Below are positions 2,747 through 29,224 of a stretch of DNA of 64,000 bases, one piece after another. The stretch lies in contig CAZLLR010000001.1 of assembly GCA_964560655.1 (NCBI GenBank), positions 36,202 to 100,201 on the forward strand, read 5' to 3'. Every line of letters begins with the position of its first letter. Within the stretch, counting starts at the first letter, position 1. Origin of the DNA: an uncultured Candidatus Saccharibacteria bacterium. Lineage in GTDB: Bacteria; Patescibacteriota; Minisyncoccia; GCA-002772825. The translations under genes were made by a program, and so were the position numbers. The notes beneath the pieces were generated by a model. The model did not search any database. It was not told where the DNA came from and was given only the letters and a program-made list of their open reading frames with translations.

Positions 2747-5467
2747 ATGAATAAAGGAAAAGAATGGCATTCTCTCAAAATTAAAGAAATCACAGAGGAA
2801 TTTAAGTCAGACATAAACAAGGGATTAAGGGAGAGTCAAGTCCTCCTCAATAGACGAAGCTTTGGGTCTAATACTTTAAAAACTCCAAAGAAATTTAGAT
2901 TTTTAAAACTTCTTTGGTCGCAAATTAAGAGCCCTTTGGCTCTTATTCTTATCGTTGCCGGTATCCTTGCAGCCATACTAGGAGAATTTGCTGATTCTTT
3001 TGTTATATTTGCCGCAGTACTTATAAACACTTCTATAGGTATTTTCCAAGAAGGAAAAGCGGGGAAGACGTTCTCTGAGTTGGCATCCTCGCAAAAAAGA
3101 TGGACCACTGTCTTAAGAGATGGAGGAAAGCGTGTAGTATCCTCAAGTGAGTTAGTCCCCGGAGATGTCGTCTTAGTAAAAGCAGGGGATATTATCCCAG
3201 CTGACTTAAGGATAATAGAATCAAAAAATTTTGAGTCTAATGAATCAGCTCTTACTGGTGAATGGGGGTCCGTGCAAAAAGAAGCGATTATCCTTGAAGA
3301 GAAAGTTCGCGTGACAGAAAGGAAGAATATGCTCTGGTCTGGTACTCTTGTAGCCTCCGGCTGGGGAAAGACCATAGTAGTGAGAACAGGTATGAAGACA
3401 GAGCTAGGCAAAATTGCCGGTATGGTAAATGAGGGCGAGATACAAACTCCTTTCCAGAAAAATATAACTAAGCTTGCAAGGATTCTAAGCGTCATAATTC
3501 TCTTCACTCTTGTAATCATCTTTACTATCGGCCTATGGAAAGGTGAACCCCTTACCGAAATGTTTCTTCTCTCAGTAGCGATAGCTGTCGCTGCTATTCC
3601 TGAAGGATTACCTATTGCGGTGACTGTCGTCTTGGCTTTAGGTATGGGGCGGATACTAAAGAAAGGCGGACTAGTGAAGCATTTGTCAGCGGCAGAAACA
3701 TTAGGAAGCGCAACTGTTATATTAACGGATAAGACAGGCACACTAACCCAAGCAAAGATGCAGGTTGCCGGCATTATAACCCTCTCTTCACTTTCTAACA
3801 TTAAAAATATTCTTTTTAAAAATACAGACCAGAAGCAAACTCTAGATATGGCAATGCTCTCTGGTGATGCCTTTATAGAGAACCCGAAAGCTGCTTTCCA
3901 GGAATGGCTAATTCGTGGAGAGGCGATGGATAAAGCAATCCTTCTGGCTCGTATAGAGTCTGGAGATTTCCCAGATACAACAAGTAATGACACAAGGCTC
4001 GATTTCGTACCATTTGACGCGAAAAATAGATTTTCTGCATCGATGAATAAGGTGAAGGGAGGAGAAAACCGTATATACTTAAAAGGATCTCCTGAGCTAG
4101 TACTTGATATCTCAAGTAAAATATATCATGATGGAAAAGTTTTAAAGATTACAAAAATCCAGAAAGATAAATTAGAGAAAGCTTACTCTGATAAGACAAA
4201 CGAGGGTATGCGACTTATCGCTGTTGCTTATAAAGATGGTAAATGGAAGGATTTTAGCGAGTCAGGCGAATTAATGAAAGAAGTGTCGAATTCCTCCCAA
4301 GAACAGAAAGGGGGGAGTAATGCAGGTTTTATCTTCATGGGTTTCATCGCCTTCCATGACCCGATAAGACTTGATGTAAAAGACTCTATAAAGCTAGCCA
4401 GAGAGGCGGGGATAAGGACGATAATGGTAACAGGTGACCACAAGGTGACAGCTGAGAAGATTGCCAAAGAAGCAGGTATCACAAAGACTGGTAAGACAAT
4501 AGAAGGCTTCGAAATAGACGACTTAGACGAGAAGGCTCTTATGAAACTTGTAAAAGAAGTGTCTGTATTCGCACGTGTGCTACCTCATCAAAAGCTTAAA
4601 ATAGCCCAAGCATTGCAGAAAAATGGTGAGGTTGTCGCTATGACAGGAGACGGCGTCAACGACGCGCCAGCTCTCTCTAACGCTGATATAGGGGTAGCAC
4701 TCGGCTCTGGCACAGAGATAGCTAAAGAAGCTTCAGACTTAGTGCTGCTTGATAACAATTTTAGTATCATCGTATCGGCGATAGAAGAAGGTAGGAGGAT
4801 TGTTGGCAACTTGAAGAAGATTGTTACTTATCTCCTATCAACTGGTTTTAGTGAGATAATACTTGTCGGTTTCTCTCTTTCTGTCGGGTTACCTCTGCCA
4901 GTACTTCCAGTCCAGATCTTATGGACAAATATCATAGAAGAAGGATTTATGAATTTTGCATTCGCTTTTGAACCGAAAGAGGATGGGCTTATGACTCGTC
5001 AAGCAAATAGTAAGACCGACAGTAATATACTTACTAAAGATATTAAGACACTTGTTCTCACTATATCTGTGATAACCTCTTCATTTCTTATCGGCTTATA
5101 CTTAATCTTATTATCCTTGAATCTTCCAATAGAAGAAGTAAGGACAATAATGTTTGCAGGACTATCTATAGATTCGATATTCTTCACTTTCTCTTTAAAG
5201 AATTTAAGTGCGCCTATCTGGCGAATAAACCTTCTCTCAAATAAATATTTGATCATCGCTTTTCTTGTAAGCATTTTTTCTCTTCTTATAGCCTTATTTT
5301 TACCTCCAATCCAGAAGCTCCTTTCTCTGACGTCACTCTCTATGTATGACTTACTTCTTGTAGTCGGTATAGGATTATTTAATCTTATCTCTATAGAGGC
5401 AGTAAAATACTTCATCTTTGAAAGACGAACTAAGACTAGACTTAAACGAAAAGTAGTATCTGTTTAA
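2747..5467 (+). CDS. cation-transporting P-type ATPase (type IIA, Ca2+-ATPase-like)
   Basis: Motifs TGES-like ESALTGEW, PEGLP, DKTGTLT and TGDGVNDAPAL, with about 10 TM segments. The ORF-track start at 2705 is a GTG inside the terminator hairpin, so the ATG at 2747 (MNKGKEWHSLK...) is preferred. Confidence 0.85.
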   Translation: MNKGKEWHSLKIKEITEEFKSDINKGLRESQVLLNRRSFGSNTLKTPKKFRFLKLLWSQIKSPLALILIVAGILAAILGEFADSFVIFAAVLINTSIGIFQEGKAGKTFSELASSQKRWTTVLRDGGKRVVSSSELVPGDVVLVKAGDIIPADLRIIESKNFESNESALTGEWGSVQKEAIILEEKVRVTERKNMLWSGTLVASGWGKTIVVRTGMKTELGKIAGMVNEGEIQTPFQKNITKLARILSVIILFTLVIIFTIGLWKGEPLTEMFLLSVAIAVAAIPEGLPIAVTVVLALGMGRILKKGGLVKHLSAAETLGSATVILTDKTGTLTQAKMQVAGIITLSSLSNIKNILFKNTDQKQTLDMAMLSGDAFIENPKAAFQEWLIRGEAMDKAILLARIESGDFPDTTSNDTRLDFVPFDAKNRFSASMNKVKGGENRIYLKGSPELVLDISSKIYHDGKVLKITKIQKDKLEKAYSDKTNEGMRLIAVAYKDGKWKDFSESGELMKEVSNSSQEQKGGSNAGFIFMGFIAFHDPIRLDVKDSIKLAREAGIRTIMVTGDHKVTAEKIAKEAGITKTGKTIEGFEIDDLDEKALMKLVKEVSVFARVLPHQKLKIAQALQKNGEVVAMTGDGVNDAPALSNADIGVALGSGTEIAKEASDLVLLDNNFSIIVSAIEEGRRIVGNLKKIVTYLLSTGFSEIILVGFSLSVGLPLPVLPVQILWTNIIEEGFMNFAFAFEPKEDGLMTRQANSKTDSNILTKDIKTLVLTISVITSSFLIGLYLILLSLNLPIEEVRTIMFAGLSIDSIFFTFSLKNLSAPIWRINLLSNKYLIIAFLVSIFSLLIALFLPPIQKLLSLTSLSMYDLLLVVGIGLFNLISIEAVKYFIFERRTKTRLKRKVVSV

Positions 5468-5487
5468 ATTTATGATAAAATCTTAAT

Positions 5488-6441
5488 ATGCCTATATATT
5501 TCTATCTATTAATTTTCATAATTTCTTTTTTAGTTATAGCTAAATCTAGCGCTCTTCTCGTACAATCACTGACTCACATGGCGCGCTTCTTTGGACTCTC
5601 GGAGTACTTCATAGCTTTTATCTTTATGAGCATCGCCACCTCTATGCCGGAGTTTTTTATAGGTATATCCTCTACTATCCAAAACACATCCTCTCTTTCT
5701 TTCGGCAATATACTTGGCGCTAATCTTATAAACCTCACTCTGGTTATAGGTGTAGTAGCTCTTCTCTCTAAGGGAATTACCGTCGAGAGTAAGATTTCTA
5801 AGAGGAATTTCCTCCTTATATTCTTTATCGCTTTTCTTCCTATCCTTCTTATCTCAGACGGTGTTATTTCAAGGGGAGACGGCATTATCCTACTTGTATC
5901 ATTTATCATATATTCTTTTATGTTGATAGGAGAGAGAGAATACTTTACTAAGATACTAAAAGAGGTTAATTTTAATGGTGAAAGTATCTTCAATGCAGTG
6001 AGAAACCTTTGGCGTTTCTTCTTAGGGGTGTCACTTCTTATTGGTGGTTCTTTTATTCTTGTATGGTCTGGCAAGACACTAGCAGGAGACTTAAATATAG
6101 GCCTCATCTATTTTGGGATAATATTTATTGCTTTAGGTACTGCACTTCCAGAGCTTATGTTTGGGATAAGAGCTTCTCTTATGAAGCATTCGTCGATGAC
6201 ACTCGGAAATTCATTAGGGAGTATAGCTTTCAACTCTACTTTCATACTTGGTATCATGGCAATTATAAGGCCTATCTATTTTACCCCTGAGATCAAATTT
6301 ATAATAACAGCCTTTTTTCTTTTCTCTGCTTTTCTACTTTTCAACTTCTTCGCATATTCACGTAGTACTATTTCAAGACGAGAGGGATTTATGCTAATAT
6401 TAGTTTATGTTGCCTTTCTGACAGCTCAGTATTTAGTCTAA
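5488..6441 (+). CDS. CaCA-family Na+/Ca2+ (or H+/Ca2+) antiporter (YrbG-like)
   Basis: Two alpha-repeat motifs, GNILGANLINLTLVIG and GNSLGSIAFNSTFILG. About 10 TM segments. Confidence 0.8.
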   Translation: MPIYFYLLIFIISFLVIAKSSALLVQSLTHMARFFGLSEYFIAFIFMSIATSMPEFFIGISSTIQNTSSLSFGNILGANLINLTLVIGVVALLSKGITVESKISKRNFLLIFFIAFLPILLISDGVISRGDGIILLVSFIIYSFMLIGEREYFTKILKEVNFNGESIFNAVRNLWRFFLGVSLLIGGSFILVWSGKTLAGDLNIGLIYFGIIFIALGTALPELMFGIRASLMKHSSMTLGNSLGSIAFNSTFILGIMAIIRPIYFTPEIKFIITAFFLFSAFLLFNFFAYSRSTISRREGFMLILVYVAFLTAQYLV

Positions 6442-23115: not shown

Positions 23116-23187
23116 TCCGGCGTAGCTCAGTGGTAGAGCAGTTGACTGTTAATCAATTGGTCGCAGGTTCGAATCCTGCCGCCGGAG
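23116..23187 (+). tRNA. tRNA-Asn (anticodon GUU)
   Basis: 72 nt. Acceptor TCCGGCG/CGCCGGA, D-arm GCTCAGTGGTAGAGC, anticodon loop CTGTTAA, T-loop TTCGAAT. U1-A72 as in E. coli tRNA-Asn. Confidence 0.8.
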
Positions 23188-23245
23188 CAGAATAGACACT
23201 CTTCAAAATTTTGTAATTTATAGTGAAAAAAGCTACAATTTATCT

Positions 23246-23869: not shown

Positions 23870-24070
23870 TTACTTCGGGTTCCATGGGAGTTTTTTCCAC
23901 TGTCCTCCGGGAATCCTGACTGTGGTGTGCCCATTATTGACCTCACCTTTCGGATCTATATTGAAGGAATCGTGGACGTCTCCTCCAATTGGTGATGAGC
24001 CTGCCGGCTGTATGCCAAAATTGGGCTTTAAGGGCTTGAAGCCTGAGTTTCCTCCATTCATGATAATCAC
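23870..24070 (-). CDS. 66-aa Gly/Pro-rich small protein P1 (MIIMNGGNSGFKPLKPNFGIQPAGSSPIGGDVHDSFNIDPKGEVNNGHTTVRIPGGQWKKLPWNPK)
   Basis: Minus strand. AGGAGGTG SD 7 nt before the ATG, sigma70 promoter (TTGACT-17-TATTCT) upstream, terminator downstream. Paralogous to the 26410 ORF. Confidence 0.55.
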   Translation of the reverse strand: MIIMNGGNSGFKPLKPNFGIQPAGSSPIGGDVHDSFNIDPKGEVNNGHTTVRIPGGQWKKLPWNPK

Positions 24071-24576: not shown

Positions 24577-25500
24577 CTATTGTAAGAGTAGTTGTGCTAA
24601 TGAATCAATGACCCCTGGGTTGATATTATATTTAGGAAAGGAACCAAAAGGATTCACGTCTATCACAATTGGTTCTTCTCCTGAGATTACATCTATACAT
24701 AGATACTCTAGATTCAAATTTTTACAAAGAGACTTAAATTTACTCTCATACTCTTTAAAAATATCTGTTTCTATTTTAACTAATCTCGCTGAGCTTTTAT
24801 CTAGAGGATCGATTTCTTCTCTTTTATAAGAGAATATTTTATCTCCTATAATAAAGATTCTGTATTCCTCTCCCTTTATCTTATTTTGTAAAAGACAAGT
24901 CCCGAATATATCTATATGTTTTTTTAAATCAATATTTCCTTCAATAATATGAGGTGGATAAATATAAGCTGTATCCCCGCTATCTTCTTCAAAAGATAAC
25001 ATTTCTTTTAATTGAGTTTCTGCCTCAGGTAAAGCTTGAGAGAAATAACAATTTCCAAGACTTTTAGAAATCTGTGTTTCTGAAAATTTTAAGTCCATAT
25101 TATTTTTTCTTAATACAAAAGAATTTGGTGTTTTAATTCCACATTCCCTTACTTTTTTGAGAGAATAAAGTCTATTTCGAGCAAAGTGTGCATCTTTGAT
25201 ATTATTTATACTAATATCAGTAAACAAAAGTCCGAGAGTTTTGAAGAATTCAGTATTTTCTCTTTTTTGGTAATCTTCCGTATGTGGGCTAATCAAATCA
25301 TAAGGGTATCTAATAAATGCTCGGGTAAAGGTTTTTATTGGATGTTTTTCTACTTTTTCTCCAATGTAAACAAATTTATCATCAACAGCCTTGATATCTT
25401 TATCTGAAAAAATAAGATCTTCTTTTTTTGATATTTTTCGGATAGATTTTTCTAAATCTCCTAAACTATTATATGAGCAAGCGAGTAATATTTTATTCAT
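24577..25500 (-). CDS. ATP-grasp ligase, RimK-like
   Basis: EYRIFIIGDKIFSYKRE matches RimK DIRCLVVGDEVV, and LEYLCIDVISGEEPIVIDVNPFGSF matches the RimK/MdnC C-terminal E-x-N Mg-binding motif. 307 aa. Confidence 0.65.
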   Translation of the reverse strand: MNKILLACSYNSLGDLEKSIRKISKKEDLIFSDKDIKAVDDKFVYIGEKVEKHPIKTFTRAFIRYPYDLISPHTEDYQKRENTEFFKTLGLLFTDISINNIKDAHFARNRLYSLKKVRECGIKTPNSFVLRKNNMDLKFSETQISKSLGNCYFSQALPEAETQLKEMLSFEEDSGDTAYIYPPHIIEGNIDLKKHIDIFGTCLLQNKIKGEEYRIFIIGDKIFSYKREEIDPLDKSSARLVKIETDIFKEYESKFKSLCKNLNLEYLCIDVISGEEPIVIDVNPFGSFPKYNINPGVIDSLAQLLLQ

Positions 25501-25513
25501 AGAAATTAAAATA

Positions 25514-25541
25514 AACAGGAGCGGATAACCGCTCCTGTTTA
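25514..25541 (-). terminator. perfect hairpin AAACAGGAGCGG-ttat-CCGCTCCTGTTT followed by a T-rich run on the minus strand, 13 nt upstream of the ATP-grasp ATG
   Basis: 12-bp stem, and the U-tract is present only on the minus strand. Positioned like an attenuator of a transcript reading into the ATP-grasp gene. Confidence 0.5.
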
Positions 25542-25699
25542 AATACTTAATCTTTCCAAATTTTATTTGCCATAATAAATATTATTAATTAATAATGGAC
25601 TAATTTAATGCTATCATAAAGTATTTTTTCTATCAACTAGGTCAAATAATTACCTTTTTTACCCAAAACTGGACATCAATTCTAAATCCTTCTTAACCT

Positions 25700-25900
25700 C
25701 CATCCAGTTCAAAGTTCTGAATGTATCCAGTAGACGGAGCCAAACAGAACAGCCCTCCAATTTTCGTCCGCGCCGAGCGTGGGGCGTGCGATGGGAGTGG
25801 AATTACCACGCACTCGGTGTGGAAGTGGTCGAGCTTTGTTCGAAATAAGTTCGGATTTCATCATATAGACGGAGTCTCGTAAAATAATCTCAAAATTAAA
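25700..25900. ncRNA. candidate structured RNA / GC-rich leader element (unassigned)
   Basis: Local GC-rich block in an AT-rich genome (CCGCGCCGAGCGTGGGGCGTGCGATGGGAGTGG...). Internal complementary segments CCGAGTGCGTGG / CCACGCTCGG. The only overlapping ORF (25709..25939, minus) starts with TTG, has no SD, and has atypical composition. Confidence 0.25.
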
Positions 25901-26022
25901 ATATTCTATATCAGAGGTTACATATTCATCTATGTTCAAGCCACTTGTCTTTTTTCATATATATGATTTAATGAAAATAGATATATTGGTCTTTAAAAAT
26001 CGTAAAGAAGGAGGTGAGTAAG

Positions 26023-26364
26023 ATGGCAGATTTTAAAGTGAAACTTATACAAATTCCCATTATTCCAAGTTTGAGTCCCGGAACACCGGAGTTTAGAGAA
26101 GATAGACGCGCTCATATGTCCACATTAATGTCTATCTATGAGATGAGTAAGAAGGAAAGGACTTGCCCTAGATGCGGTGAAAATAAAAGTCCAACTAAAC
26201 CCCAATGTTTCTCTTGTCTTTCAACAAGTGTTCTAAGCCTCCATTACCTTTCCGAACAAACAAAGGAATGTAAATTTCACGGAATTAATTTCTGTCCAAA
26301 ATGCGACAAATTTATGCCCTCATTTATGAAAAAATGCCCCAGCTGCTTTTATAAAAGGAGTTGA
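26023..26364 (+). CDS. 113-aa Cys-rich small protein with four CxxC pairs, N-terminus MADF
   Basis: SD AAGGAGGTG. CPRC...CFSC and CPKC...CPSC. The first 30 or so nt including the SD are near-identical to the 26410 ORF. Confidence 0.55.
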   Translation: MADFKVKLIQIPIIPSLSPGTPEFREDRRAHMSTLMSIYEMSKKERTCPRCGENKSPTKPQCFSCLSTSVLSLHYLSEQTKECKFHGINFCPKCDKFMPSFMKKCPSCFYKRS

Positions 26365-26409
26365 ACTCTAAACATGCCTATACTGTATATAAAAAGGAGG
26401 TGAGTAGAA

Positions 26410-26606
26410 TGGCAGATTTTAGAGATAGCTTCCCTAAGGTAGACCCTCGCATGAAGATCAGATCTGATCTCGATAACCGTAAACACGGACCGCATCATGA
26501 TGTGTTCGTCCCTGTTTCTGGAGGAACTGATCAAACAAGGGTTACCCCCGATGGAGAGGTGATCGGCGGAACTACTAACATAGGAAAAGCCAAAAAGGAC
26601 TGGTAA
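26410..26606 (+). CDS. 65-aa small protein P2 (MADFRDSFPKVDPRMKIRSDLDNRKHGPHHDVFVPVSGGTDQTRVTPDGEVIGGTTNIGKAKKDW)
   Basis: SD AAGGAGGTG. N-terminus is duplicated from the 26023 ORF. The C-terminal PDGEVxGGTT...KK block is paralogous to P1 (23870..24070). Confidence 0.55.
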
Positions 26607-27733: not shown

Positions 27734-29224
27734 ATGGACGATAATATAACGATACTTACAAAAACAGATTTCAAAGAATACCTTTTGTGCAATAAGTGTC
27801 TTTGGCTTAAAAAGAAATGCCCGGAGGAATATATTCAAGGTGACTTTTCTCTTTTCCTTAAAAAACTTATAAAAGACGGTTATGAAGTTGAATCATATGT
27901 ACAAAAACTTTTTCCTGATGGTGTCTTTCTCTCAGGCGACAAAGAAGCATTGATTTCGAGAACAAAAGATTTACTTACAGGAGATAAACCAATCTTCCAA
28001 GCAACCTTTGAAACAGATAGTGGCCTTTTTGCTAAAGTCGATATTCTTGATTTTAATAAAAAGACAAATAAGTGGGACTTGTACGAAGTAAAAGCAAGTT
28101 CAGAAATAAAGACGGATATAAAACACAACCACGTTAAAGACGTTATATTTCAGACAATCGTTGCAGAAGACTCAGGAGTTGATATTGGTGATAGTTACAT
28201 TATCTATATAAATAGGGAATATAGGCGCAGTGGTGACATAGACCTTGATAAGTTATTTATAGTTGAGAATATTGTCGAAAAAGTAGTTGAGCAAAAGGAG
28301 TTAGTACGAGGAGAGATACAATGTGCGTTAGACATGCTTAAGAAAGATGATGTGTCTCTCGATGGATGTGACTGTTTATACAAAAGCCATGGCCAACGGT
28401 GCGATTCTTTTTTTAAGTTTAACCCAAATGTACCCGAGTACTCTATTCACCACATTGTCACAGGAAATAAGCTAAAGACACTTTTAGAAGAAGGACTGTT
28501 AGATATAAAAGATATACCAGAAGATTTTGAACTTACTGATATTCAAAGAGATAAGGTTTCCCTGCAAAAAATAGGTAAACCTCTTATAGATAAAATTGCA
28601 ATAAAACAAACCTTGTCAGAGTTAGTGTTTCCCATATACTTTCTAGACTATGAAACATATGGATCTCCCATACCTCTTCTTGATGGCTATAAGACGAATC
28701 AGCAAGTCGTATTTCAAGTATCATTACATGTGTTAAGAGAAGATGGAACATTGGAACACTTTGAGTATTTAGCAGATAAGCTAGATAGTGCCACGAGAGG
28801 GCTTGTAGATATGCTAAAGGCTAATATAGGCGATGTGGGGAGCGTCGTTGTATGGTATGAGAGCTTTGAGAAGGGGAGAAATGCAGAATTAGCCGAATTA
28901 CACCCAGAAGATAAAGAATTTATGGAAGATTTAAACAATAGAGTGTTTGATCTTATGAAAGTTTTTAAGAAAGATTACTTGCATCCAGATTTCCAAGGTA
29001 GCGCCTCAATAAAGAAAGTTCTTCCTGTTCTTTTGCCAGAGCTGTCATATAAAAATTTGGACATACAAAACGGTACGATGGCGCTTAGTGAATGGGAGAA
29101 GATAATTAAAGGAAAGTTGAGTAAAGAAGAGGCTGAAAAAATAAAGCAAAATTTACTAAAATATTGTGAGCTCGACACACTTGCTATGGTAGAGATATAT
29201 AAGAAGTTAGTTATGTTAGCATAA
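27734..29224 (+). CDS. DUF2779-type protein: N-terminal Cas4/RecB-like PD-(D/E)xK nuclease fold plus C-terminal RNase-H-like region
   Basis: D...DLYEVK nuclease motif (VDILDF...WDLYEVKAS), Cys cluster (CNKC...C, CDCLYKSHGQRC), C-terminal FLDYET acidic motif. About 500 aa as in the DUF2779 family. Family assignment is from memory. Confidence 0.6.
   Translation: MDDNITILTKTDFKEYLLCNKCLWLKKKCPEEYIQGDFSLFLKKLIKDGYEVESYVQKLFPDGVFLSGDKEALISRTKDLLTGDKPIFQATFETDSGLFAKVDILDFNKKTNKWDLYEVKASSEIKTDIKHNHVKDVIFQTIVAEDSGVDIGDSYIIYINREYRRSGDIDLDKLFIVENIVEKVVEQKELVRGEIQCALDMLKKDDVSLDGCDCLYKSHGQRCDSFFKFNPNVPEYSIHHIVTGNKLKTLLEEGLLDIKDIPEDFELTDIQRDKVSLQKIGKPLIDKIAIKQTLSELVFPIYFLDYETYGSPIPLLDGYKTNQQVVFQVSLHVLREDGTLEHFEYLADKLDSATRGLVDMLKANIGDVGSVVVWYESFEKGRNAELAELHPEDKEFMEDLNNRVFDLMKVFKKDYLHPDFQGSASIKKVLPVLLPELSYKNLDIQNGTMALSEWEKIIKGKLSKEEAEKIKQNLLKYCELDTLAMVEIYKKLVMLA

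Follow-up and report, generated by a model that had tools for sequence, protein, structure and literature searches.

The interval under study lies in a 64-kb window of contig CAZLLR010000001.1 (the window is the whole stretch of DNA analysed, 64,000 nt with a mean G+C (GC) content of 36.5%), where it fills the 520-nt gap between a gene for an ATP-grasp ligase on the minus strand (24577-25500) and a zinc-ribbon gene that diverges from it on the plus strand (26023-26364). In this gap, an eight-codon open reading frame (ORF) encoding MANKIWKD and a terminator-like hairpin precede the ligase gene, and these elements recur together across phyla. We consider it probable that they represent a minimal, leaderless ribosomal peptide substrate and its ATP-grasp ligase, with a terminator between the two genes that sets the ratio of peptide to enzyme. 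The JGI annotation has no called gene in 25501-26408, and its gene caller missed the micro-ORF.

The comparative set comprised DNA around ATP-grasp homologues from genomes, metagenomes and assemblies (locus labels L003-L032). Loci with enough flanking DNA were taken as informative, giving 23 independent loci with the window included and L003 and L026 counted together. A systematic scan found an ORF of 6-10 codons, ending in [A/K][I/V]-W-[K/Q]-D-stop, adjoining the ATP-grasp gene in every one of the 23, as compared to a calculated chance expectation of about 2e-5 per locus for a 15-nt degenerate pattern in a 150-nt stretch. The loci come from Patescibacteria, Cloacimonadota, Bacteroidota (Cyclobacteriaceae), an Acidobacteriaceae metagenome-assembled genome (MAG) and one high-GC organism. 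The original prediction, made from the letters of the window, had listed MANKIWKD as a possible upstream ORF (uORF) of eight codons without a Shine-Dalgarno site. This description was confirmed, and the ORF proved to belong to a conserved family. The minor, cis-acting role assigned to it was not supported, since at the amino-acid level no other element of the locus is conserved as well as the micro-ORF, with the peptide kept even in the high-GC genome, and since the micro-ORF forms a separate convergent gene in L003/L026.

The variation among the micro-ORFs has the character of a coding sequence. In the codon table, which took in 20 loci, the tryptophan is TGG in all 20, and the aspartate is present in all 20 (GAT in 8, GAC in 12). 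The isoleucine appears as ATT, ATC or ATA, with valine as the alternative, while the K/Q position is lysine (AAA or AAG) or glutamine (CAA or CAG), and the residue before I/V is alanine (GCA, GCT or GCG) or lysine. Changes at the five conserved C-terminal codons are thus synonymous or limited to A/K, I/V and K/Q, a signature of selection on the peptide and not on the RNA sequence. All three stop codons (TAA, TAG and TGA) are in use, and the length differences are in-frame; a 6-nt insertion that keeps the frame sets the window apart from MAIWKD. A canonical GGAGG is located 4-10 nt before the start in nine loci (L007, L008, L012, L013, L019, L021, L028, L029 and L032). At L027 (3993-4075), the public ATP-grasp call (336 aa, start 4001) runs through MAIWQD and the hairpin, a mis-annotation that hides the micro-ORF; by family alignment, the real start of this ligase is the ATG about 70 nt further on.

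The hairpin of the window starts 5 nt past the stop codon of the micro-ORF and has the anatomy of an intrinsic terminator, with 7 G-C pairs among the 13 of the stem, a 4-nt loop and the tail UUUUAAUUU. Its 5′ arm is UAAACAGGAGCGG; the 3′ arm is followed by UUUUAAUUUCU and then by the ATP-grasp ATG at 25500, 11 nt from the end of the stem. The predicted stability is -22.7 kcal/mol (z -7.7), a value reached by none of 200 shuffled sequences, and the frequency of the minimum free energy (MFE) structure is 0.64 for the 50 nt after the stop codon. It is the sole terminator-like site in 25300-26200. In this respect the original prediction was sound, both for a hairpin with a U-tract just before the ATP-grasp ATG and for the AGGAG/CUCCU pair in its arms, whose AGGAGC core in the 5′ arm recurs in close relatives.

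Hairpins in the same location are a general property of the family. They follow the stop codon in 19 of the 20 loci that were folded over the 50-60 nt past it (z -2.5 to -8.6), mostly with a U-tract, and were recognised by eye in L030 and L031, bringing the total to 21 of 23. In most loci the hairpin starts 0-12 nt past the stop codon. The stem sequences are unrelated between lineages. In an alignment of eight Patescibacteria-type loci, compensatory double changes were found in 7 of the 13 stem pairs, and 89% of the stem cells are paired, as compared to 41-51% when the partners are slid. Four further loci without usable upstream DNA stand outside the 23, and two of these four keep the 3′ arm of the hairpin.

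Upstream of the micro-ORF, a consensus scan and alignment with relatives located a predicted sigma-70-type promoter, composed of a -35 element TTGATA (25636-25631), a 17-nt spacer and an extended -10 element TGaTAGCAT (25616-25608). The same architecture aligns in L022 (TTGACA-17-TGaTACTAT) and L027 (TTGCTT-17-TGaTACTTT), whereas L003 has only the -10 element, TGtTAGCAT, in common. Transcription is predicted to start at about 25601, giving an A/U-rich 5′ untranslated region (UTR) of about 28 nt. In the window, the distance between the hairpin and the ligase ATG leaves no space for a promoter or a Shine-Dalgarno site of the ligase gene itself, so the ligase must be expressed from read-through transcripts.

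The N-termini of 23 homologues, when aligned, are in agreement with 25500 as the start of the ATP-grasp gene. An identical protein is also found in an NCBI record and, in JGI sample 3300023548, on a metagenome contig. The homologues, most of them from Patescibacteria MAGs such as those of Candidatus Uhrbacteria, make up a rare family, with 27 clusters returned by a word-indexed search of 5.8 billion proteins and 44 (at 50% identity) by an exhaustive profile search of 1.84 billion representatives at E <= 1e-30, beyond which a gap extends to 1e-15. The Pfam match is to ATP-grasp_3 (E 6e-5), just above threshold, and the NCBIfam matches, to the grasp-with-spasm, MvdD and MvdC maturases and to RimK, are weak (18-24 bits versus cut-offs of 230-475). 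In a profile search of the PDB, MdnC (5IG9) came first at 3e-7, followed by AMdnB (7M4S), PsnB (7DRM) and MdnB. The AlphaFold2 model of the ligase (mean pLDDT 86.8, pTM 0.85) gave the following Foldseek order for the predicted fold: MdnC, AMdnB, CdnC (7MGV), MdnB, PsnB and PruB, and then ArgX/LysX and RimK. The PADLOC defence models did not match the ATP-grasp protein, and no relatives of it were found in viral contigs.

ATP-grasp enzymes phosphorylate a carboxylate and then join it to an amine. In MdnC, AMdnB, CdnC, MdnB, PsnB and PruB, as well as in LysX/ArgX and RimK, the carboxylate belongs to a ribosomally made peptide or protein, and LysX/ArgX and RimK act on C-terminal acidic residues. 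The family alignment keeps residues expected of an active ATP-grasp enzyme, among them K146, D270 and D281-x-N283, which suggests catalytic roles for them. R64-Y65-P66-Y67-D68 and R108/R110 are likewise invariant in this alignment.

The arrangement of the unit differs in some lineages. L003/L026 have no micro-ORF upstream of their ATP-grasp gene; there, MAIWKD is encoded on the opposite strand about 630 nt downstream, together with a -10 element and a hairpin of its own, and converges with a gene of 200 aa overlapping the stop codon of the ligase. As a separate convergent gene downstream, the micro-ORF of L003/L026 would act in trans. A predicted 2-oxoglutarate (2OG)/Fe(II) oxygenase of about 200 aa, with an invariant HxD…H…R motif, overlaps or abuts the 3′ end of the ligase gene in four lineages; it matches the PADLOC 2OG model (2.5e-5) and, weakly, a Tet-like dioxygenase (E 0.02). 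Oxygenase, micro-ORF and ligase are predicted to form a three-gene version of the cassette in these four lineages. In L032, three radical SAM genes (1118-2257, 3717-5039 and 5467-5942), two of them with SPASM, flank the micro-ORF/ligase pair, and the micro-ORF is located 160 nt upstream of the ligase gene. The corresponding distance is about 100 nt in L021, and the gaps of both loci contain promoter-like sequence. As judged from these comparisons, the pattern is that of a putative small, horizontally mobile biosynthetic cassette.

Table 1. Positions of the features discussed and peptides encoded by the micro-ORFs. Positions refer to the window unless a locus is named.
Feature	Position or locus	Strand	Description
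ATP-grasp ligase gene	24577..25500	-	307 aa; small, sharply bounded family distantly related to graspetide macrocyclases
Intrinsic-terminator hairpin	25501..25541	-	13-bp stem 25541-25529 / 25524-25512, loop UUAU, U-rich tail 25511-25501
Micro-ORF MANKIWKD	25547..25573	-	ATG 25573, TAA 25547; ATG GCA AAT AAA ATT TGG AAA GAT TAA
Predicted sigma-70-type promoter of micro-ORF	25608..25636	-	consensus scan; alignment with relatives
GC-rich block	25695..25864	unassigned	between micro-ORF promoter and divergent zinc-ribbon gene; outside conserved cassette
Predicted oxygenase, ~200 aa	L003 3899-4501; L026 4899-5501; L008 3902-4438; L016 1017-1607; L029 1147-1776		
Peptide MANKIWKD	window		
Peptide MAIWKD	L022, L003/L026, L021, L030, L032		
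Peptide MAIWQD	L004, L018, L027		
Peptide MKIWKD	L031		
Peptide MAVWKD	L014		
Peptide MKIFKIWKD	L023		
Peptide MTLSAIWQD	L005		
Peptide MVYSKIWQD	L006		
Peptide MCCKIWKD	L007		Cloacimonadota
Peptide MINKVWKD	L008		Cyclobacteriaceae
Peptide MEKIWKD	L009		
Peptide MKGAIWQD	L011		
Peptide MSRAIWKD	L012		
Peptide MYSKIWKD	L013		
Peptide MKRRKKIWKD	L019		
Peptide MVRKIWKD	L028		
Peptide MHSAIWKD	L029		high GC

We propose that 25636-24577 on the minus strand may operate as a two-gene cassette, consisting of the promoter, the eight-codon gene, the intrinsic terminator and the ATP-grasp ligase gene. The micro-ORF would be translated, and the peptide, either as a precursor or as a carrier, would serve as the ligase substrate, recognised via its invariant C-terminal [A/K][I/V]-W-[K/Q]-D-COOH. 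The ligase would phosphorylate a carboxylate, presumably that of the invariant C-terminal Asp, and join it to an amine. The modification could be a cyclisation onto the N-terminal amine or the ligation of an external amine, which might yield the smallest known carrier peptide or a Trojan-horse-type product. The hairpin would terminate most transcripts, resulting in abundant peptide mRNA and little read-through enzyme mRNA, as in the mccA-terminator-mccB arrangement of microcin C, and the close spacing of stop codon and hairpin could allow a translating ribosome to modulate termination or re-initiation. The cassette may spread horizontally between Patescibacteria and other phyla.

A broader claim, for which we consider the chances evenly balanced, is that these loci constitute an undescribed class of minimal ribosomal peptide products without a leader, in which a dedicated ligase directly recognises a peptide of 5-9 residues with the C-terminus [A/K][I/V]-W-[K/Q]-D and modifies the terminal Asp, a 2OG/Fe(II) oxygenase or a radical SAM enzyme is added in some lineages, and the genes spread horizontally and are invisible to gene callers. 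WKD peptides were not found in the text and 187 supplementary files of a graspetide survey that covers bacteria of the Candidate Phyla Radiation (CPR) (PMC8939145). A full-text literature search for the peptide strings returned nothing relevant and no prior description, although the subscription literature could hold one.

Several observations weigh against the enzyme-substrate proposal. No conserved protease or exporter is found in the cassette, and the other neighbours differ in every locus, so the conserved unit is the micro-ORF and the ligase gene, sometimes with tailoring-type enzymes. In the Patescibacteria-type loci, the window included, the micro-ORF is preceded by an A/U-rich leader without a Shine-Dalgarno sequence, unlike the neighbouring genes of the window, which have a strong GGAGGTG before 26023 and 24061. 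L019 lacks an adjacent hairpin (z -1.5), and the terminator of L032 lies further downstream than usual, by about 100 nt. A classic graspetide side-chain cross-link is impossible in MAIWQD, which contains no Ser, Thr or Lys. Finally, a conserved C-terminal peptide with a close terminator also fits a ribosome-arrest leader, which is weighed below.

The other component of the gap is the GC-rich block, which is real yet not conserved, and which lies outside the micro-ORF/ligase unit. It had been described as far richer in GC than its surroundings, correctly so: in 80-nt sliding windows its GC content peaks at 0.64, the highest of the whole 64-kb window, as compared to the mean of 0.365. The complementarity of CCGAGTGCGTGG / CCACGCTCGG, which the original prediction had also pointed out, is present as 5 + 5 bp around a 2-nt bulge, but the fold of 25727-25860 is no better than that of shuffled sequences (z +0.12 for the minus and -0.70 for the plus strand). 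When the flanks are included (25690-25900), z is -1.6 and -1.5. Rfam at gathering thresholds detected two tRNAs only in the whole window. In a permissive scan of 25400-26100 on both strands (E <= 10), the block had no match; all matches were sub-threshold and aligned to the hairpin, the best being Termite-leu with 28.8 bits versus a cut-off of 51. The Rfam check suggested by the original prediction therefore assigned the leader to no known RNA family.

The block has no counterpart among its relatives. Nothing corresponding to 25727-25860 was found in 30 related loci (about 170 kb), the closest relative, L022, also lacking it, and a homologous GC block is absent at the other 22 ATP-grasp loci. 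A search by nhmmer with the intergenic region of the window recovered the micro-ORF and the hairpin and did not recover the block, and plasmids, phages and viral contigs gave no match to it. At about the position of the block, L022 (40-150) has a different GC-rich imperfect inverted repeat upstream of the micro-ORF promoter (GTTAGAGACaggtcGCGGTC … GACCGCGGTCTCTAAC, about 70 nt apart), and the two are not homologous.

Several identities of the block were tried and rejected. The 76-aa ORF 25709..25939, already suspected of being spurious, has no Pfam match and no homologue among 5.8 billion proteins. The 53-aa plus-strand ORF gave a weak sub-threshold Pfam match alone, and the six-frame translations contain nothing recognisable. 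A decayed paralogue of the nearby GC-rich genes for 63-aa and 65-aa proteins received no BLASTP match, and even these two proteins did not match each other. No tRNA or tmRNA was found in the block; a comparable GC peak in L011 is a tRNA-Gln.

We regard it as possible, if rather unlikely, that the block is unrelated to the cassette, being a lineage-specific small RNA, the 5′ UTR of the zinc-ribbon gene, or what remains of an insertion or of a decayed gene between copies of CTCCGTCTA. On the plus strand, promoter-like sites at 25567-25617 are oriented through the block in the direction of the zinc-ribbon gene, and the genes around it are orphans, as would fit a variable region; for the zinc-ribbon gene itself no homologues were found. 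The 9-nt CTCCGTCTA occurs twice on the minus strand (25874-25866 and 25739-25731), forming a direct repeat around most of the block, and UGGAUGGAG (25706-25698, minus strand) is complementary to both copies. However, a 9-nt repeat is estimated to arise by chance about once per ten regions of about 250 nt, and the elements could reflect a target-site duplication, alternative pairing or chance, which one genome cannot separate from one another. The block also lacks a terminator, a conserved homologue and a fold signal of its own.

The AT-richer 3′ flank of the block, its sole part with a counterpart in another locus, also favours this reading. Positions 25742-25647 (minus strand) resemble L010 986-1083 (minus strand) over about 95 nt with about 70% identity (nhmmer E 2e-5). 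In the window this stretch is placed between the block and the micro-ORF promoter, and in L010 it directly follows the TAA of an unrelated gene for a surface-protein-like product of 533 aa and precedes a weak terminator; the rest of the two intergenic regions is unrelated, and the 533-aa protein has no match in the window. A stop codon stands at the same position in one frame of the shared stretch. The 16-codon frame common to both (…APSTGYIQNFELDGG versus …APSPGQVQNSGLEED) was rejected as coding on inspection, the differences being even over the three codon positions and L010 having no start codon.

A second alternative, which we judge improbable, concerns the micro-ORF itself. It could be a cis-acting arrest-peptide attenuator, in which a ribosome stalled at or near the stop codon of MANKIWKD in response to a ligand or to the translation state would cover the base of the terminator and allow read-through into the ligase gene. 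The order of uORF, terminator and gene is that of such a leader, as is the position of the terminator so soon after the stop codon in most loci, and the ligase gene of the window has no promoter or Shine-Dalgarno site of its own. Arrest peptides typically carry invariant residues such as W and D, as in TnaC. Indeed, tna and the short macrolide-responsive leaders share with the present loci a short uORF followed by a terminator before the regulated gene. However, their peptides act in cis only and, across phyla, do not keep to a single enzyme family. The cis arrangement holds in 22 of the 23 lineages; in L003/L026 the convergent micro-ORF lies downstream of the ATP-grasp and oxygenase genes, with nothing in cis to regulate, and thus cannot act only in cis. 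Inspection, unaided by a dedicated fold of the complete leader, revealed no antiterminator segment complementary to the 5′ arm of the hairpin. The long gaps with promoter-like sequence between ORF and gene in L032 and L021 also argue against attenuation. The exclusive pairing of the micro-ORF with one peptide-ligase-like family across phyla is better explained by an enzyme-substrate pair.

Least of all can we support the view that 25727-25860 is a riboswitch-like aptamer or structured leader controlling the hairpin and the ligase, as the original prediction had it: the block does combine the highest GC content of the window with an intergenic position and some internal complementarity, but it has no Rfam match and no fold signal, it is absent from all other loci, it lies upstream of the likely transcription start because the promoter shared with the closest relatives is downstream of it, and eight loci leave no room for an aptamer, since the end of an ordinary gene or open frame comes about 20-105 nt ahead of the micro-ORF. 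Of the riboswitch or attenuation layout originally read into the leader, the uORF and the hairpin thus stand, as real and conserved parts of one unit 5′ of the ligase gene, and the aptamer falls away.

The surroundings of the locus were also inspected. The gene order of the window includes rpoC, dnaG, rpoD, tRNA-Asn and NUDIX. The leader is not repeated elsewhere in the 64 kb, and tRNA-Asn (23116-23188), considered as the attachment site of an island, has no matching repeat downstream. Strong GGAGGTG sites precede the members of a cluster of small orphan genes, the zinc-ribbon gene among them, whose GC content of 0.47-0.48 is well above the window mean (23870-24061, minus strand; 26023-26364 and 26409-26606, plus strand). 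Its products are a 63-aa protein, a 65-aa protein with a KKDW end and a 113-aa double zinc-ribbon protein. The stretches 26008-26030 and 26394-26416 are duplicates of one another (91% identity over 23 nt), each covering a ribosome-binding site and the codons that open the gene (…GTGAGTAAGATGGCAGATTT, MADF…). Further along, 27734-29224 (plus strand) encodes a 496-aa DUF2779 protein, whose N-terminal region resembles a Cas4-like nuclease (PADLOC Cas4, 8e-7) and whose C-terminal region resembles RNase_H_2; no CRISPR context was seen near it.

If the peptide is the substrate of the ligase, no shorter precursor of an ATP-grasp enzyme that modifies peptides would be known, and the gene of the peptide would be the second or third natural-product gene too small for annotation pipelines, after those of microcin C and the biarylitides. 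The orphan enzyme family would gain a synthesisable substrate candidate (AIWKD or MAIWKD) and a simple motif with which to search metagenomes. Most members come from Patescibacteria (CPR), whose specialised chemistry is almost unknown; these bacteria have reduced genomes, are mostly uncultured and are regarded as symbionts or parasites of other bacteria (PMC8939145). The placement of the terminator would add a second natural system in which mccA-type control of the ratio of substrate to enzyme can be tested. As a lesson for genome scanning, the signal lay in the odd little uORF and not in the eye-catching GC block.

Among known systems, the graspetide ligases MdnC/MdnB, AMdnB, CdnC, PsnB and PruB are the closest by profile and predicted fold, and their peptides are also encoded adjacent to the enzyme. 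Graspetide-like loci are known in CPR bacteria, some without an identifiable precursor (PMC8939145). However, graspetide precursors combine a leader carrying a recognition motif with a core of Thr/Ser/Lys and Asp/Glu, whereas the present peptides are leaderless, with 6-10 residues in total of which only the C-terminal five are conserved. The core is not of the graspetide type either, as the K/Q position is not fixed as Lys and three loci (L004, L018 and L027) have a peptide devoid of Thr, Ser and Lys. In addition, the matches to graspetide families are far below the cut-offs (23 bits versus 230-475), and the ligase family forms its own separate cluster. A canonical graspetide is ruled out by the leaderless peptide and by the variants without Ser, Thr or Lys.

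The LysW/ArgW amino-group carrier system, and RimK with ribosomal protein S6, show a different resemblance. LysW, the substrate of LysX/ArgX, ends in EDWGE-COOH in three solved chains, a W-x-acidic-COOH pattern that corresponds to W-[K/Q]-D-COOH here. LysX/ArgX and RimK, which are among the structural matches of the ligase, are ATP-grasp enzymes that attach an amine at the C-terminal acidic residue of a polypeptide made by ribosomes. In contrast to the peptides of 6-10 residues described here, LysW is a zinc-ribbon protein of 53-56 aa that works in the lysZYJK pathway, and the structural match to LysX/ArgX ranks below those to the graspetide ligases. Since the conserved cassette contains neither the zinc-ribbon carrier nor lysZYJK-type pathway genes, a LysW system is ruled out.

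In gene layout, the nearest parallels are the biarylitides and microcin C, although the enzymes differ and both types of cluster are thereby ruled out. Biarylitides derive from precursors of five residues, encoded by the 18-bp bytA next to a P450 gene (10.1101/2020.07.21.214643; PMC13417212). Like the present loci, they are minimal two-gene clusters of leaderless peptides made by the ribosome and modified after translation (RiPPs), with a precursor too short for gene callers that came to light only by its conserved location beside the enzyme. Biarylitides are mainly actinobacterial, and their P450 introduces a biaryl cross-link into an MxYxH peptide, whereas ATP-dependent carboxylate ligation on [A/K][I/V]W[K/Q]D is proposed here.

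The microcin C gene mccA has 7 codons, and a terminator is located in the short gap before mccB; this terminator gives rise to an abundant, ribosome-stabilised mccA mRNA and a minor read-through mRNA, ribosome binding controlling termination (Zukher et al. 2014, PMC4231749). MccB is a ThiF/E1-like adenylyltransferase, as compared to the ATP-grasp ligase of the present loci, so that the two systems have the gene layout alone in common. Moreover, mccC/D/E-type export and immunity genes are absent here, and the last five residues of the peptide are conserved, not just the last one. Ribosome-controlled termination, demonstrated for mcc, may also apply here. Nevertheless, both systems place a tiny ORF for the enzyme's peptide substrate, putative in the present case, and an intrinsic terminator before the gene for the modifying enzyme, and both peptides end in a conserved residue, which is Asn (converted to Asp-AMP) in microcin C and the invariant Asp in the family described here.

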